From a virus (taxonomy: Duplodnaviria > Heunggongvirae > Uroviricota > Caudoviricetes), in IMG/VR virus record IMGVR_UViG_2529292725_000015: DNA of 5,359 nt; one strand, 5' to 3'. Shown one piece after another: positions 1-5,359 of the stretch. Below the pieces are notes generated by a model that saw nothing but the letters and a program-made list of their open reading frames with translations, was not told the DNA's origin and ran no database searches. A program made the translations under genes and the position numbers. Positions within the stretch are counted from its first letter, which is position 1. Each line of letters starts with the position of its first letter.

Positions 1-555
1 TCATTTATCTCCGACCGGAAACTTCTTATACAAAGTCGATACGCCAACATCATAAATGATCGCCACCTTCTGGCGAGGAACTCCTGATGCAATTAGTCGC
101 CCGGCCTGCGCCCATTGTTCTGGTGTAAGTTTGGGACGACGTCCACCAATTCGTCCCTGTGCGCGAGCAGCTTCCAGTCCAGCTTTTGTTCGTTCAACAA
201 TCAGTTCTCGTTCCATTTCAGCCAGGGCACCCATCACATGAAAGAAAAAACGCCCCATCGGTGTGCTGGTATCAATTGAATCCGTCAGACTACGAAAGTT
301 AATGCCTCGTTCGCGCAACCCCTCCACCAGCACGACAAGATGCCGCATACTGCGCCCCAGTCGGTCCAGCTTCCAGACAACCAGAGTGTCACCTGCCGAT
401 AATGTCCTAAGCAGTTTTTTCAGTCCCGGCCTTTCGGACTTTGTGCCGCTTATCTTGTCTTCAAAAATCAGCTCGCATCCTGCACAGTTCAGCGCATTAC
501 GTTGTAGATCTGTGTTCTGGTCATTTGTTGATACGCGTACATAGCCAATAAGCAT
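1..555 (-). CDS. pin: Serine-recombinase DNA invertase, Gin/Pin/Cin/Hin family (184 aa from the ATG at 553-555; the 196-aa ORF reaching 591 is probably a 5' over-extension)
   Basis: Translation MLIGYVRVSTNDQNTDLQRNAL...GRIGGRRPKLTPEQWAQAGRLIASGVPRQKVAIIYDVGVSTLYKKF has the small-serine-recombinase N-terminus with the catalytic Ser in the YVRVST motif (codon at 529-531) and a C-terminal HTH domain; the length is typical for Gin/Pin. A GGGGGA Shine-Dalgarno-like motif lies ~9 nt upstream of the ATG at 555. Stop TGA is at 1-3 (minus). The gene sits next to an invertible tail-fibre segment. Confidence 0.93.
   Translation of the reverse strand: MLIGYVRVSTNDQNTDLQRNALNCAGCELIFEDKISGTKSERPGLKKLLRTLSAGDTLVVWKLDRLGRSMRHLVVLVEGLRERGINFRSLTDSIDTSTPMGRFFFHVMGALAEMERELIVERTKAGLEAARAQGRIGGRRPKLTPEQWAQAGRLIASGVPRQKVAIIYDVGVSTLYKKFPVGDK
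425..500. promoter_or_regulatory. Predicted Fis-dependent recombinational enhancer inside the 5' part of the invertase gene (position inferred by analogy, not identified by motif)
   Basis: In the Gin, Hin and Cin systems the enhancer lies inside the first ~150 bp of the invertase coding sequence. The coordinates here are placed by analogy only; I could not confidently pick Fis sites by eye. Confidence 0.25.
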
Positions 556-581
556 GGTAGATCCCCCTGACAAAAGCAGGA

Positions 582-1160
582 ATGATGCCATTTGCTCGTT
601 ATTTCTGCATTTTCATAAACGTTGGTTTGGGAGAAGGTTCGGCATTACCCGTTGGCGTGCCTGTTCCGTGGCCTTCCGCCACTCCGCCAACAGGCTGGCT
701 GAAATGCAACGGTGCCGCTTTTTCTGCTGAAGAATACCCGGAACTGGCAAAGGCTTATCCGACAAATAAATTGCCTGATTTACGTGGTGAGTTTATTCGT
801 GGCTGGGATGACGGGCGTGGTGTGGATGCGGGACGTGCCTTGCTAAGTCTTCAGGATGACTCTTTTGAAGCGCACAGGCATGAGTCCTTTTTTTACGCGG
901 GTATTTCTCGCAATGAAATACCATTAAAAAATCTTCCAAGTTCAGACGAGATGCTGACTTTAAGTTCTACAACTAATGCCTTGTCCCCGGACGGTATTGA
1001 TGCCACTAATTCGTTAATTGGTAATGATGATTACAACTGTCTGATTGAAGGAAATAAAAATAACAAACGAACAGCGACGGGGTTGAGTACCAGTATTGTC
1101 GGTGCAGCAGAGACACGCCCACGTAATATTTCATTTAATTACATTGTGAGGGCTGCATGA
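582..1160 (+). CDS. Silent alternative tail-fibre C-terminal cassette (Sv'-like). The ORF runs 582..1160, but the functional reading frame starts at the crossover (codon at 624) and would be fused to the constant fibre N-terminus only after inversion
   Basis: Translation ...GLGEGSALPVGVPVPWPSATPPTGWLKCNGAAFSAEEYPELAKAYPTNKLPDLRGEFIRGWDDGRGVDAGR... carries the conserved C-terminal motif of Mu/P1/e14-type tail fibres. The ORF is in frame with the crossover core, and no convincing independent start context is evident. Confidence 0.8.
   Translation: MMPFARYFCIFINVGLGEGSALPVGVPVPWPSATPPTGWLKCNGAAFSAEEYPELAKAYPTNKLPDLRGEFIRGWDDGRGVDAGRALLSLQDDSFEAHRHESFFYAGISRNEIPLKNLPSSDEMLTLSSTTNALSPDGIDATNSLIGNDDYNCLIEGNKNNKRTATGLSTSIVGAAETRPRNISFNYIVRAA
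610..635. repeat. 26-bp inversion crossover site (gix/pix/hix-like), invertase-proximal; read on the minus strand as TTCTCCCAAACC-AA-CGTTTATGAAAA
   Basis: Dyad-symmetric site with an AACC..GGTT-type core arrangement. It matches the site at 2535..2560 at 21 of 26 positions when compared in inverted orientation, including an identical 14-bp interior half plus core. The 2-bp core is AA on the minus strand (plus 622-623 = tt). Confidence 0.8.
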
Positions 1161-1762
1161 TGTATAACGCCATCTTGAATAGTAAATTTATTGCCACAAA
1201 GGCAGGAGAGATTACCGTTTATAACTATGACAGTGAGACACGGGAGGATATTTCTGCATCAACTGAATATCTTGCTGTGGGTGTCGGTATCCCTGCATAT
1301 TCCTGTTTAGATGCTCCTGGCACACATAAGGCTGGTTATGCAATCTGCCGTTCGGCAGATTTAAACTCATGGGAATATGTGTCAGACCATCGCGGTGAAA
1401 TCATCTATAGCACCGAAACAGGAGAATCGAAAGAAATCACAGCTCCGGGTGATTATCCTGAAAATACAACCACTATCGCCCCGTTAACGCCATACGATGA
1501 ATGGGATGGTGAGAAATGGGTAACAGATACTGTGGCACAGCATAGCGCCGCAGTAGGCGCGGCAGAAGCACAGCGTCAGTCACTGATTGATACTGCAATG
1601 GCTTCCATTAGTCTGATTCAGCTGAAATTGCAGGCCGGACGGAATCTGACGCAGGCAGAAACCGCCCGACTTAACGCTGCGCTGGATTACATTGACGCGG
1701 TGACGGCAACAGATACCAGCACCGCGCCGGATGTCATCTGGCCTGAACTGCCGGAGGCGTAG
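1157..1762 (+). CDS. Tail-fibre assembly protein (Tfa / Mu U-like), cognate of the silent cassette
   Basis: 201-aa product with a Tfa-like C-terminus (...LDYIDAVTATDTSTAPDVIWPELPEA). Its start overlaps the upstream stop as ATGA (1157-1160), and GAGGG lies ~5 nt upstream. It sits directly downstream of the variable fibre cassette, as in the G and P segments. Confidence 0.85.
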   Translation: MMYNAILNSKFIATKAGEITVYNYDSETREDISASTEYLAVGVGIPAYSCLDAPGTHKAGYAICRSADLNSWEYVSDHRGEIIYSTETGESKEITAPGDYPENTTTIAPLTPYDEWDGEKWVTDTVAQHSAAVGAAEAQRQSLIDTAMASISLIQLKLQAGRNLTQAETARLNAALDYIDAVTATDTSTAPDVIWPELPEA

Positions 1763-2174
1763 GCCATTCAATATCTGGCGCACCGGAAGTATCGACCAGT
1801 TCCAGTGCGTCCAGATAATCCAGCCACAAATTATATTGCGCCAGTTCCTCCCCTTTCAGCCGGCCAATAGCCGCTTTACCAGGCCATTGTTTACTGTTCA
1901 TATAATCGTTGGCCTGATTAATCAGTTGCTGCTTTTCCAGTTCGGCTGCAGCAATCTGTTCCTCATGTGTTGGTGGTGGAATTTCAGACCATGCAGGAAA
2001 ACCATTTTCTCCAGCGATACGGATTTTTCCTTTCGGCGGTAATCCGGAAAACTCAATATACACTTGCTCATCAACTTCAACAGCATCATCTGGCCATGAG
2101 TCAGCTTGAGTGTAATCCTCTTTCATCTCCAGCGGATAGAAAGAGTTTGTAGTCGCGGAATATATGTAATTCAT
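1734..2174 (-). CDS. Tail-fibre assembly protein (Tfa), cognate of the currently expressed fibre C-terminus
   Basis: 146-aa product ending ...NLWLDYLDALELVDTSGAPDIEWPTPPAVQAR, the same C-terminal Tfa signature as the plus-strand tfa. GGAG lies ~8 nt upstream of the ATG at 2172-2174. It follows the fibre gene stop (2196-2198) by 21 nt. Confidence 0.85.
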   Translation of the reverse strand: MNYIYSATTNSFYPLEMKEDYTQADSWPDDAVEVDEQVYIEFSGLPPKGKIRIAGENGFPAWSEIPPPTHEEQIAAAELEKQQLINQANDYMNSKQWPGKAAIGRLKGEELAQYNLWLDYLDALELVDTSGAPDIEWPTPPAVQAR

Positions 2175-2195
2175 TTTTCACTCCATATAGCTAAA

Positions 2196-2885
2196 TTAAC
2201 AGCCTAACGCTAAAAATGAAGCGCCGAGGCCAGGAGTACTGGCTCTGGATATAAATTTAACCGGGTCGGGACTAAAACCTGCACAGGCAATATAACCAAC
2301 AGCCCCGCTATCTGGTGTGTAGTCTTGTGAGACCAAAACACGCAGACATCTGTTTGGAAATGCAATCGGGAAATGGGTTACTACATCCTGTGCAATGCCT
2401 GGTGCGCCGATTGAGCCCCACTGAAGAATAAAACCTGATGGTAATTTTTGATATCCAGTACCTGAAACAGAAAGCGTGAAGCTACCCATATCAGGTATCT
2501 GATTCGCCCCTGTCCCTACATTCCTTTTAGCCGCTTCTCCCAAACCAAGGTTTTCGAGAGCCGTTTTCACCGTGCCATCCGATTTGATATCACCAAACGG
2601 ATTCTTGCGGCTCAGGTATTCAACAGCAAACCCCGATCCCAGCAATTCAACAAAACCGGGCAGATCACCATTATCAAGCACATCCCGTTGCGTTTTGTCA
2701 CTTACAAACTGGGCCAGAGCTGCAGCAATAAAGCTGGCCTGCCGAATAACCTTATTGACTTGCGCACTGGATGCTTTCCCTGCTGTAAATCCGGATAAAA
2801 GCGCAGGCAACGCTTCCCATTCCTCCTGCGACATAACATTGGCATTCCGATCAGTTGCAAACGCTTTAAAGTCATTTTTCGCCAT
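2196..2885 (-). CDS. Tail-fibre protein in the currently expressed configuration: constant N-terminal part (2885 down to ~2549) fused through the crossover site to variable C-terminal part (2546 down to 2196); 229 aa
   Basis: The ORF is continuous through the crossover site 2535..2560, which encodes ALENLGLGE. The ATG at 2883-2885 overlaps the stop of the upstream gene (ATGA), which favours MAKNDFKAF... as the true start over the upstream MGSITL start in the ORF track. GGGGAG lies upstream. Confidence 0.85.
2535..2560. repeat. 26-bp inversion crossover site (gix/pix/hix-like), invertase-distal; plus strand TTCTCCCAAACC-AA-GGTTTTCGAGAG
   Basis: Internal dyad symmetry (9 of 12 between half-sites). 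Core AA at 2547-2548 is inverted relative to the site at 610..635. The site lies inside the tail-fibre coding sequence at the constant/variable junction. Confidence 0.8.
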
Positions 2886-3565
2886 CAGAGTAATACTCCC
2901 CATGCCCCTACATCAAAACCACTGATGAATTCGTTATCCATATCAAAACCAAAAAATTTTGAACCTTCCGATGGAGTTTCCACCGAAGGTGTTTCAATGC
3001 CACCCGCCCAAACCCCGGCGGCTTTTACTGTGAGATATCCCTGTTTAATTGCAGCAATTAACTCACGCGATACATCTGAAATATCAGTATCAGGAAAGAG
3101 CCAGACCGATATCGTCATGTCCTGGTTATCGACTATCTGCATTCGCAGTCCGGATCCTGCTGTCGCCGCGTCAAGAATTGCTGGAAGCGAATCATTCCGT
3201 CCGTCCCAGTTATTAATCGCAATCTTCGCTTTAAGGATGACACGATAAGTTTCATCGCTGAGGTACATGTATCCGGAATCAGGATCGTATGGCCCCTGCC
3301 ATACACCCTGATCATATCCAAGCCCGTCGGTATCCCAGCTGAAATAGACACCTGAGATAGGCTGGCTGACAACACGGCTACGTCCGATCCACAATCCAAG
3401 AATGTCAAGTTGCACACCAACCGCAGAGTCAATATCAAATGCAGTAATCAGCCCTCTGGTGGCAGCCGCAACATCAATAAGCGGCCGGGTCATCAGATCA
3501 ACATGTGCAAGAAATTTAGGTTTGGTGGCGTGGTAGTTCGTGATCAGTTCGGTGTATTTGCTCAT
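2885..3565 (-). CDS. Phage tail/baseplate-associated protein (226 aa), the gene immediately upstream of the tail fibre; family assignment uncertain (position is consistent with Mu gp48 / e14 YmfQ-like proteins)
   Basis: Long ORF on the same strand as the fibre gene. Its stop overlaps the fibre start (ATGA at 2883-2887) and its start overlaps the stop of the upstream ORF (ATGA at 3562-3565), i.e. an operon with translational coupling. GGTGGAG lies upstream of the ATG. Confidence 0.7.
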
Positions 3566-3864
3566 GACTCCACCGTTATAACGATATTTTCCGGTGTACA
3601 GGACGCAGATTCGTTGTATCTGATATCAATGTTTGATGACGACAAAGCCCCCGGGGATTTCCCAATCGTCAGTTCCTGAATATCGTAATAGCGTGCATTC
3701 CCGCCACTCACCACGCCAAGATTCGCCGGTGAGTAAATGCGACTTAAAAGGACCGAATCACCAATCATCAGACTATTGATATAGTCGGAAATAGCCTGCT
3801 GGATCTGCTGCCCTATCTGTGAGGTATAACCCGTAAAAACTTTTAATTTAATCCGGGCATAAAC
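3562..3864 (-). pseudogene. 3' remnant (~100 codons) of an upstream tail/baseplate gene, apparently truncated at its 5' side by the IS66-family insertion
   Basis: The minus-strand frame ending at TGA 3562-3564 stays open upstream of the only ATG (3766-3768), through the IS boundary at ~3865, as far as an in-frame stop at 3997-3999 inside IS DNA. The product C-terminus is protein-like and translationally coupled to the next gene, so the 68-aa ORF in the track is more likely the tail of a disrupted larger gene than a small protein. Confidence 0.5.
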
Positions 3865-3890
3865 GTAAGCGTACAGCCTGAACCGTCTGG
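3865..3890. repeat. Putative left terminal inverted repeat of the IS66-family element (extent approximate)
   Basis: GTAAGCGTACAGCCTGAACCGTCTGG begins with the GTAAGCG motif characteristic of IS66-family termini. The right end is outside the window, so the repeat cannot be confirmed by pairing. Confidence 0.45.
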
Positions 3891-3956
3891 TCAGAATCTG
3901 ACGAATTAGACAAAGTGGTGTCCACCAAATAAGTAGTGGGAACCAAAGTGTCAGAT

Positions 3957-4337
3957 ATGCAGAAAAATGTGACTCCCGGCAGGCGAAAAGGCAGCCCTAA
4001 TTATCCTCCCGAATTTAAACAGCAGCTCGTTGCTGCCTCCTGTGAACCCGGGATATCCATCTCAAAACTTGCTCTTGAAAATGGCATTAACGCCAATCTG
4101 TTGTTCAAATGGCGACAACAATGGCGCGAGGGAAAGCTGCTATTACCTTCTTCAGAGAGCCCCCAGCTACTTCCTGTGACTCTCGATGCAGCTGCCGAAC
4201 AGCCAGAATCGCTCGCAGAGGACCCGAAAACCCTCAGTATCAGCTGTGAGGTAACGTTCCGGCACGGGACGCTCCGCTTCAATGGCAATGTCAGCGAAAA
4301 GCTCCTGACTCTGCTGATACAGGAACTGAAGCGATGA
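3957..4337 (+). CDS. tnpA: IS66-family OrfA (TnpA-like small HTH protein); an alternative GTG start lies at 3936
   Basis: Translation MQKNVTPGRRKGSPNYPPEFKQQLVAASCEPGISISKLALENGINANLLFKWRQQW is an IS3/IS66-type HTH transposase-accessory N-terminus. Its stop overlaps the next start as ATGA (4334-4337). Confidence 0.8.
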   Translation: MQKNVTPGRRKGSPNYPPEFKQQLVAASCEPGISISKLALENGINANLLFKWRQQWREGKLLLPSSESPQLLPVTLDAAAEQPESLAEDPKTLSISCEVTFRHGTLRFNGNVSEKLLTLLIQELKR

Positions 4338-4681
4338 TCCCGTTACCTTCCGGGACCAAAATTTGGCTGGTTGCCGGTATCACCGATATGAGAAATGGCT
4401 TCAACGGCCTAGCGGCAAAGGTGCAGACGACGCTGAAAGACGATCCGATGTCAGGTCACGTTTTTATCTTCCGTGGGCGTAATGGCAGTCAGGTAAAGCT
4501 CCTCTGGTCTACCGGCGATGGACTGTGTCTGCTGACCAAACGGCTGGAGCGCGGCCGCTTCGCCTGGCCGTCAGCCCGGGATGGCAAAGTGTTCCTCACA
4601 CCGGCACAGCTGGCGATGCTCCTTGAAGGTATCGACTGGCGGCAGCCTAAAAGACTGCTTACGTCCCTGACTATGTTGTAA
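4334..4681 (+). CDS. tnpB: IS66-family OrfB (TnpB-like accessory protein)
   Basis: 115-aa product MIPLPSGTKIWLVAGITDMRNGFNGLAAKVQ...LWSTGDGLCLLTKRLERGRFAWP... matches the conserved IS66 Orf2 pattern and is translationally coupled to orfA. Confidence 0.85.
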   Translation: MIPLPSGTKIWLVAGITDMRNGFNGLAAKVQTTLKDDPMSGHVFIFRGRNGSQVKLLWSTGDGLCLLTKRLERGRFAWPSARDGKVFLTPAQLAMLLEGIDWRQPKRLLTSLTML

Positions 4682-4729
4682 GCCTCTTTATCCTGGTCGA
4701 CGCTGAATGAGCCTGGTAATATACCCGGT

Positions 4730-5359
4730 ATGAGCAGCTCACTTCCTGACGGTATCAATGCGCTGAAACGTCTCCTTGCCGAACAGGAGGCGCTGAACCG
4801 TGCCCTGCTGGAAAAGCTGAACGAGCGTGAACGCGAAATAGACCATCTGCAGGCACAGCTGGATAAGCTGCGCCGGATGAACTTCGGCAGCCGCTCCGAA
4901 AAAGTCTCCCGTCGTATCGCACAGATGGAAGCTGACCTGAAGGCACTTCAGAAAGAAAGTGATACCCTTACCGGTCGGGTTGACGACCCGGCCGTGCAGC
5001 GCCCGCTGCGTCAAACCCGCACCCGCAAACCGTTCCCCGAATCACTCCCCCGCGATGAAAAACGGCTGCTGCCGGCAGCGTCATGCTGCCCGGAATGTGG
5101 AGGCTCACTGAGCTATCTGGGTGAGGATGCCGCCGAACAGCTGGAGTTGATGCGCAGCGTCTTCCGGGTTATCCGGACTGTACGTGAAAAGCATGCCTGT
5201 ACTCAGTGCGATGCCATCGTGCAGGCCCCCGCGCCTTCACGGCCCATCGAGCGGGGTATCGCAGGACCGGGGCTGCTGGCCCGCGTGCTGATCTCAAAGT
5301 ATGCAGAGCACACCCCGCTGTACCGCCAGTCTGAAATGTACGGCCGCCAGGGCGTGGAG
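4730..5359 (+). CDS. tnpC: IS66-family transposase (TnpC), N-terminal 210 codons; 3' end beyond the window. Not in the supplied ORF track because no stop lies within the window
   Basis: Open frame from the ATG at 4730-4732 to the window end, translating MSSSLPDGINALKRLLAEQEALNRALLEKLNERE...LPAASCCPECGGSLSYLGEDAAEQLELMRSVFRVIRTVREKHACTQCDAIVQAP... (coiled-coil/leucine-zipper-like N-terminus followed by a zinc-finger-like CxxC...CxxC motif, as in IS66 transposases). Confidence 0.85.
   Translation, partial: MSSSLPDGINALKRLLAEQEALNRALLEKLNEREREIDHLQAQLDKLRRMNFGSRSEKVSRRIAQMEADLKALQKESDTLTGRVDDPAVQRPLRQTRTRKPFPESLPRDEKRLLPAASCCPECGGSLSYLGEDAAEQLELMRSVFRVIRTVREKHACTQCDAIVQAPAPSRPIERGIAGPGLLARVLISKYAEHTPLYRQSEMYGRQGVE

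Follow-up and report, generated by a model that had tools for sequence, protein, structure and literature searches.

Is the tail-fibre module in positions 1–2885 of the viral DNA stretch IMGVR_UViG_2529292725_000015 (5,359 nucleotides, analysed over its whole length and hereafter called the window) an intact inversion switch of a known kind, a relic whose two states became fixed long ago, or a device that the bacterial host has taken over from a crippled prophage? A first-pass annotation, made from the sequence alone, had described this part of the window as a complete Gin/Pin-type tail-fibre inversion module, and all the parts it listed were found about where it had placed them; the crossover sites, for which it had given no coordinates, were located in the present analysis. 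The module is, with high confidence, an intact and ordinary Pin (e14-type) two-state DNA-inversion switch of the tail fibre of a myovirus prophage. As such it adds a member to a class that has long been known, being in essence the Pin system, and holds no surprise for specialists. The additions to the earlier account are a candidate enhancer recognised by homology, a leader open reading frame (ORF) fused to the cassette regarded as silent, the assignment of the module to a carrier other than e14, and the interruption of the baseplate J gene of that carrier by the insertion sequence (IS) ISEc22.

The invertase, its crossover sites, and the fibre cassettes

The module comprises the following features, given with their coordinates in the window and their strand:

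1–555, minus strand: pin-type serine DNA invertase gene, 184 amino acids (Pfam Resolvase, E=5e-51, and HTH_7, E=4e-14)
466–537, minus strand: candidate Fis-dependent recombinational enhancer, nucleotides 19–90 of the invertase gene, proposed from homology to the P1 cin enhancer
582–622, plus strand: short leader ORF for M(M)PFARYFCIFINVGLGE in the interval from the invertase gene to the left crossover site, running into that site
610–635, minus strand: left (invertase-proximal) 26-bp crossover site, reading TTCTCCCAAACCAACGTTTATGAAAA, with the core TT at 622–623
636–1160, plus strand: Sv' cassette, the alternative fibre C-terminus, at present not joined to Sc (Collar domain, E=1.7e-15, and a weak S_tail_recep_bd match)
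1157–1762, plus strand: Tfa for Sv', TfaE-like, 200/201 amino acids (Caudo_TAP, E=3e-31)
1734–2174, minus strand: Tfa for Sv, TfaP-like, 146 amino acids (Caudo_TAP, E=8e-38)
2196–2534, minus strand: Sv cassette, the fibre C-terminus joined in the window orientation (Gp53-like_C, E=8.9e-15)
2535–2560, plus strand: right 26-bp crossover site, inside the fibre gene, reading TTCTCCCAAACCAAGGTTTTCGAGAG, with the core AA at 2547–2548
2561–2885, minus strand: Sc, the constant N-terminus of the fibre, with about 108 codons ahead of the site and the ending ...ALENLGLGE reaching across it

The invertase is full length and carries the catalytic serine (Ser9), as had been proposed, and its 184 residues are 78–97% identical to those of Gin, Cin, and PinE. 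The highest identity, 96.7%, is to PinE of K-12, from which it differs in 6 of 184 residues, followed by Cin (82.1%) and, over its full length, Gin (77.7%). The protein starts with MLIGYVRVS at position 555 and not with the ATG at 591 used by a mechanical list of ORFs, since the homology to Gin, Cin, and PinE begins there and the Prokaryotic Genome Annotation Pipeline (PGAP) uses the same start in related genomes. It matches the sequences of the Gin structures 3UJ3 and 4M6F with E=3e-93, aligning 1:1 with 3UJ3 over residues 1–181, and has the build of a small serine recombinase: a length within about 180–190 residues, a catalytic serine near position 9–10, and a C-terminal helix-turn-helix. 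The catalytic set of Ser9, Arg7, Asp64, Arg65, and Arg68 is complete, and H106 and M114 are retained as well. In the Gin chain of 3UJ3 the position of M114 is occupied by Val, a change that we take to be an activating one, conferring independence of Fis.

The residues characteristic of the Fis- and enhancer-dependent subclass of invertases are also in place. The basic patch of helix B consists of K46, K47, and R50, corresponding to K47, R48, and K51 of Hin, and Q150, R153, and L154 align with Q151, R154, and L155 in the Hin DNA-binding domain chain 1HCR. In Hin, the former three belong to the features of the subclass and the latter three, in helix 1 of the DNA-binding domain, contact Fis (PMC3798978). 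The P1 record places the enhancer of Cin-mediated inversion at nucleotides 19–90 of cin. The collinear stretch of the window, 466–537, is identical to P1 cin at 57 of 72 positions and to Mu gin at 55 of 72, and the first 120 nucleotides of the invertase gene are 100% identical to those of K-12 pinE. Two 15-mers of the form G-N13-C, at nucleotides 22–36 and 71–85 of the gene, as in gin, are candidate Fis cores. The first has its centre 95.5 bp away from that of the crossover, and the distance separating hixL from the proximal Fis site in the Hin system is about 100 bp (PMC3798978). By homology, an enhancer region would be present within the invertase gene. A 17-nucleotide inverted repeat of 94% complementarity pairs invertase codons for ALAEMER (209–225) with part of the Sv' cassette (695–711); by a rough estimate, chance alone would produce about 0.04 such repeats in a window of this size, and the repeat has no evident function.

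The two crossover sites lie in inverted orientation and, as the first-pass annotation had it, are identical at 21 of 26 positions and share the AA/TT core. The five mismatches are all in the outer half-sites, i.e., outside the segment, while the inner halves together with the core are identical at 14 of 14 positions, so that an inversion restores both sites unchanged. The inner half-site encodes the ...GLGE residues shared by the alternative products. Both sites are imperfect palindromes, with 8/12 and 9/12 matches between their half-sites, and the top inverted repeat of the whole window, 617–636 with 2534–2553, falls on them. A degenerate 26-mer pattern allowing at most three mismatches matched the window exactly twice, at these two sites, and had no match in 200 shuffled sequences. 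With only two crossover sites in the window, the module is a simple two-state switch and not a multi-site shufflon; a multi-state arrangement such as Min of p15B was considered, and rejected when the search for extra crossover sites in the window returned just these two. The segment flipped by the switch measures 1,925 bp from centre to centre of the sites. In sequence, each site is identical at 26 of 26 positions to a site of the K-12 e14 P segment, the left one to the pinE-proximal site and the right one to the stfP site, which, together with the near identity of the invertase to PinE, bears out the earlier view that the system belongs to a known class and is not a new one. The published inverted repeats of the P segment, TTGGTTTGGGAGAAGG and CCTTCTCCCAAACCAA (PMC12529663), match the arms in the window at 16/16 and 15/16 positions. 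The sites are related to the gix and cix sites, too.

The constant part of the fibre lies outside the segment and two alternative C-termini lie inside it, both fusing to it in frame. In the present orientation the fibre ORF, 2885–2196 on the minus strand, codes for 229 amino acids; its ATG at 2885 overlaps the TGA of the upstream DUF2612 gene (ATGA), and the two genes are translationally coupled. When the segment was inverted in silico, with breaks at the central dinucleotides, an open, in-frame fibre of 288 amino acids replaced that of 229, in which the Collar-domain end comes after the same first approximately 116 residues. Both fusions of the fibre are annotated by PGAP in natural genomes, and Sc is 100% identical between genomes of either orientation. 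Behind each variable end lies a Tfa/U gene of its own, and the two sets are convergent, which agrees with the mirror-image cassettes proposed earlier. Compared with K-12, Sv is 39% identical to the C-terminal part of StfP and its 146-residue Tfa 62% identical to TfaP over residues 55–146; Sv' is 57% identical to StfE and its 200/201-residue Tfa 87% identical to TfaE. The two ends carry unrelated domains, Collar and Gp53-like_C, and this difference fits the change in receptor specificity, and with it in host range, that would be expected between the orientations.

The two tfa genes converge and share 29 bp (1734–1762), so that one stretch supplies C-terminal codons to both, each on its own strand. 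The same 29-bp overlap is found in K-12 tfaP/tfaE, while Mu U and U' are separated. An inverted repeat next to it, 1681–1698 with 1807–1824, reflects the LDYIDA/LDYLDA motif common to both proteins.

The leader ORF starts at 582 or 585, with an AGGA Shine–Dalgarno sequence 5 nucleotides upstream of 585, and is in frame with either cassette. Its product would be 191/192 amino acids long with Sv', as now, and 129/130 with Sv in the inverted orientation. The leader is conserved in K-12 stfE, both leader-fused forms are annotated by PGAP in related genomes, and the arrangement of leader and cassette is the one called StfE/StfE2 for e14 in PMC12529663. As judged from these reading frames, the cassette that faces the invertase is not silent in the strict sense and may be translated as a free fibre-tip protein.

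Natural inversion in close relatives and the enzyme behind it

The inverted form built in silico was searched, next to the window form, against complete E. coli genomes. At least 80% of the window form was found in one place in 15 of them and the inverted form in 10. All 3,864 bases of the inverted construct are present at 99.9% identity in the strain ETEC-2264 (CP023349), an enterotoxigenic E. coli (ETEC), and a yak isolate matches the construct at 99.5%; the window form matches LR882978 at 99.9%. The first-pass annotation would have been contradicted had only one orientation ever been detected. Both orientations were found, the inverted one in a complete genome and the two side by side among sister assemblies.

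Three near-clonal pairs document real inversion with the exchange inside the sites. In the first, the two ETEC genomes LR882978 and CP023349 share the prophage insertion site, have 100% identical flanks, and encode the same invertase, Tfa, and wedge proteins; just the segment 617–2553 is reversed. The second pair, RIVM_C036204 and RIVM_C029670, differs in orientation between flanks that again show 100% identity; the inner end of the site is polymorphic (T/C), and this base switches sides along with the segment, which locates the exchange inside the 26-bp site. The breakpoints of the pairs fall within the shared repeat of 18–20 bp. The third pair comes from the lineage of the window itself, which is 100% identical to the end of contig AQDB01000092.1 (assembly GCA_000354275.2, locus L020). 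Among sister assemblies that share the IS-cut J gene, one (L022) has the orientation of the window and two (L021 and L023) have the inverted one, their flanks being 100% identical to those of the window lineage save one base in the right flank of L023. Beyond the two positions at which the repeats are imperfect, the differences come down to single-nucleotide polymorphisms at 1247 and 1851, common to assemblies of both orientations, plus one at 736 in L023. The occurrence of both orientations among assemblies with the IS-cut J gene means that the segment flipped after the insertion of the IS.

In CP023349 (locus L003, 3585–3973 and 5151–5882) the inverted segment has three 1-base gaps relative to the window, and PGAP accordingly splits the gp53-like gene and shortens the fibre there; the gaps are probably long-read indel errors and not real frameshifts. 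Another genome, GCA_043907865.1 (DAZTPA010000002.1, locus L007, 10001–13900), has the same fibre and segment with a constant part of a fibre gene on either side, one from the DUF2612 prophage and the other from an e14-like prophage (96.5% identical to K-12 jayE–ymfQ–stfP). Both sites are of the Sc type there and no invertase lies between them. The arrangement is either the outcome of Pin-mediated recombination between two prophages or a short-read mis-join of the repeated segment; such a tail-to-tail fusion of two prophages was found in no complete genome, and it is not relied on here.

The switch would work as follows. Dimers of the 184-residue invertase would bind the sites at 610–635 and 2535–2560 and, on supercoiled DNA, the bound sites would synapse with a Fis-bound enhancer located within the invertase gene at its 5' end (about 466–537). 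Ser9 would then cut both sites at the central AA/TT dinucleotide, one pair of subunits would rotate once by 180 degrees, and religation of the ends would leave the 1,925-bp segment flipped. The promoter and Sc (2885–2561) remain in place, as parts of the minus-strand operon of baseplate J, DUF2612, fibre, and tfa genes. In the window orientation Sc is joined to the Gp53-like C-terminus, followed by the 146-residue Tfa, and in the inverted one to the Collar-domain C-terminus, in frame, followed by the 200-residue Tfa; the receptor-binding end of the fibre would thereby be changed. The requirement for negative supercoiling and Fis and the single 180-degree rotation are features of the invertase family, from which we infer them for this module, together with the cleavage chemistry, the dependence on the enhancer, and the change in receptor specificity.

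Several observations weigh against an intact switch driven by its own enzyme. The identity of the putative enhancer to its P1 counterpart, 79%, is barely above the 74% found for the gene as a whole. The centres of the two 15-mers are 49 bp apart, compared with 47 bp published for hin (PMC3798978), and the Fis cores are not fixed by them. A scan of positions 1–3950 for promoters and terminators gave no convincing sigma-70-like promoter for the invertase or the leader ORF; it returned fewer promoter-like sites than shuffled sequences did (5 versus 6.4) and fewer terminator-like ones (3 versus 3.5). The presence of ISEc22 in the baseplate J gene makes the expression of the fibre, and any effect on host range, doubtful in this genome. 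Finally, inversion of the e14 P segment in trans has been reported for PinQ and PinR, with a stronger effect than that of PinE (PMC12529663).

The last point bears on the view that the module is a fossil: the adjacent invertase would not be the one that flips the segment, which would either be turned in trans by another invertase of the Pin family or have its two orientations as old, fixed differences. A paralogue of this kind could act on the sites of the window, since they are identical to those of e14. All the catalytic and regulatory residues checked are nevertheless kept in the adjacent invertase, the very same protein (WP_001386857.1) stands beside segments of both orientations, and the three pairs with opposite orientations between 100% identical flanks make the flips recent and not ancient. 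A trans-acting enzyme, moreover, would alter merely who catalyses the inversion and not what the module is. Taken together, the fossil explanation is extremely improbable, and the intact two-state switch is retained as the preferred reading. From what is known of the family, its flipping is likely done by the adjacent invertase rather than by a Pin paralogue.

Relation to the e14, Mu, P1, and Hin systems

The closest known system is the P segment of e14 with its invertase PinE (Plasterk and van de Putte 1985; Mehta et al. 2004; both via PMC4272514 and PMC12529663). The order of genes is the same in e14 and in the window: a wedge gene, the fibre gene (Sc with Sv), tfa, the convergent tfa, Sv', the leader, and the invertase gene. 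The segments are close in size, 1,827 bp in e14 and 1,925 bp here, both measured from centre to centre. The two differ in their surroundings. In e14, a DUF2313 protein, YmfQ, is encoded upstream of stfP and the element is inserted in icd, while the carrier of the window has a DUF2612 wedge gene, which is without a counterpart in e14, and its relatives lie beside yfhH. On the invertase side, e14-like DNA is limited to the pin–site–tfaE part (88–93% identity). Apart from that side, the sole e14-like DNA in the constant part of the fibre is a stretch of 87 bp around the right site (2526–2612, 93%), the boundary of the conserved module lying about 50 bp into the otherwise unrelated Sc. The possibility that the prophage is e14 itself was considered and rejected, as the backbone genes differ and DUF2612, not YmfQ, lies upstream; of the marks of the e14 backbone (YmfQ, integration in icd, and mcrA next to pinE), none applies, the relatives being inserted beside yfhH and having a different neighbour of pin.

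The G segment of Mu, inverted by Gin, resembles the window in having a site upstream of the invertase gene, with the gene reading away from the segment, and in its layout of Sc/Sv–U and U'–Sv' with the constant part outside the segment. The gix site TTCCTGTAAACCGAGGTTTTGGATAA is related to the window site TTCTCCCAAACCAAGGTTTTCGAGAG, although its core is GA instead of AA. The G segment is longer (3 kb), its fibres are far longer (S has 504 amino acids) and unrelated in sequence, and U and U' do not overlap. In P1, where Cin inverts the C segment, the core is AA, as in the window (cixR is TTCTCTTAAACCAAGGTATTGGATAA), but cixL lies at the 3' end of cin and the gene reads towards the segment, unlike in the window; the segment measures 4.2 kb and the fibre about 990 amino acids. 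Hin, which inverts the H segment of Salmonella in flagellar phase variation, belongs to the same subclass of invertases as the enzyme of the window, which it resembles in the Q/R/L residues contacting Fis, the basic patch of helix B, and the spacing of about 100 bp between the site and the proximal Fis site, a candidate one in the window (PMC3798978). What Hin flips, however, is a promoter of flagellin genes and not the coding ends of a fibre gene.

The carrier prophage and the role of its switch

To the right of the module the window contains three further features:

2885–3565, minus strand: baseplate wedge protein gene (DUF2612/Phage_Wedge1, Pfam E=9e-47), directly upstream of the fibre gene
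3562–3864, minus strand: 3' fragment of the baseplate J/gp47 gene, its last 100 codons, cut off by the IS
3865–5359, plus strand: left part of ISEc22 (IS66 family), with tnpA at 3936–4337, tnpB at 4334–4681, and tnpC from 4730 off the window

Overlapping starts and stops indicate that the minus-strand genes for baseplate J, DUF2612, the fibre, and Tfa are read as one operon entering from the right. The J fragment is 100% identical to the C-terminal end of the intact gene, coding for 399 amino acids, in LR882978 and CP023349. The match to the prophage ends at 3864, and from position 3863 onward the window is 100% identical to annotated copies of ISEc22, whose end reads GTAAGCGTACAGCC from 3865; the Pfam matches of this part are HTH_Tnp_1, TnpB_IS66, and LZ_Tnp_IS66/zf-IS66/DDE_Tnp_IS66. 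The window ends inside tnpC, exactly where contig AQDB01000092.1 ends. ISEc22 interrupts the J gene at a point 300 bp upstream of the wedge gene. The junction between the IS and baseplate J occurred in none of the complete E. coli genomes searched, and an exact 38-mer spanning it had no match among the GTDB representative genomes; it was found in several draft assemblies through the 68-residue ORF of the J fragment.

Related complete genomes carry the element at full length, as a myovirus prophage beside yfhH, with a tail module of the E217_gp31/PhiTE-tube type. Among deposited phages, the closest are induced prophages of E. coli, for example vB_EcoM-606R2, as well as Citrobacter phage Omnitron; the invertible module alone is also present in P2-like phages. 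Decayed modules were seen at three related loci: L009 lacks the Sv' cassette and has a left site with a diverged outer half, L010 has an ORF for 234 amino acids with merely a weak Resolvase match, and L018 has an invertase truncated to 111 amino acids and a split baseplate J gene.

With its baseplate J gene cut by the IS, the prophage of the window probably cannot build tails, and its fibre operon may be poorly transcribed. Since baseplate J is interrupted, host-range switching is probably moot in this strain, and the host range named in the first-pass annotation as the outcome of inversion is probably not a live phenotype here. The switch still flips in the ISEc22-cut lineage and yet probably serves no viable phage any longer.

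The last consideration raises the question of whether the switch has been kept in the crippled prophage for the benefit of the host. Inversion would then matter through the fibre-tip domain fused to the leader ORF, with a product of 191 amino acids (leader and Collar domain) now and of 129 (leader and Gp53-like domain) in the inverted state, one of which would mask a surface receptor and block the adsorption of other phages. The leader has a start codon and the AGGA Shine–Dalgarno sequence, shares its reading frame with either cassette, and is conserved in K-12; inversion continues in the lineage with the cut J gene; and it has been claimed that inversion of the e14 P segment by PinQ creates StfE2, which blocks adsorption of T2 (PMC12529663). 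Ongoing flipping, however, requires an active invertase only and not selection, and the insertion of the IS may be recent, as the flanks are 100% identical to those of intact prophages. Moreover, the cassettes are just 39–57% identical to those of K-12, so that the K-12 phenotype is not transferable to them. Retention of the switch for the host is accordingly rated as quite improbable; scarcely less improbable is the broader proposal that the host would have taken it over as a phase-variable surface or anti-phage device, with a free Collar or Gp53-like tip masking a receptor. An ordinary tail-fibre switch of the phage accounts best for the locus.

The significance of the locus is mostly at the level of annotation: it provides a clean, fully assembled Pin module within a myovirus prophage other than e14, and it illustrates how an invertase gene, its sites, and one tfa gene move as a cassette among tail modules. 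As both orientations occur in public sister assemblies, any orientation assigned to this fibre gene in an ETEC genome is arbitrary, and one and the same fibre locus will receive different protein names from annotation pipelines. A defective prophage with an active switch offers, moreover, a setting for testing the anti-phage role that was recently proposed for Pin inversions.

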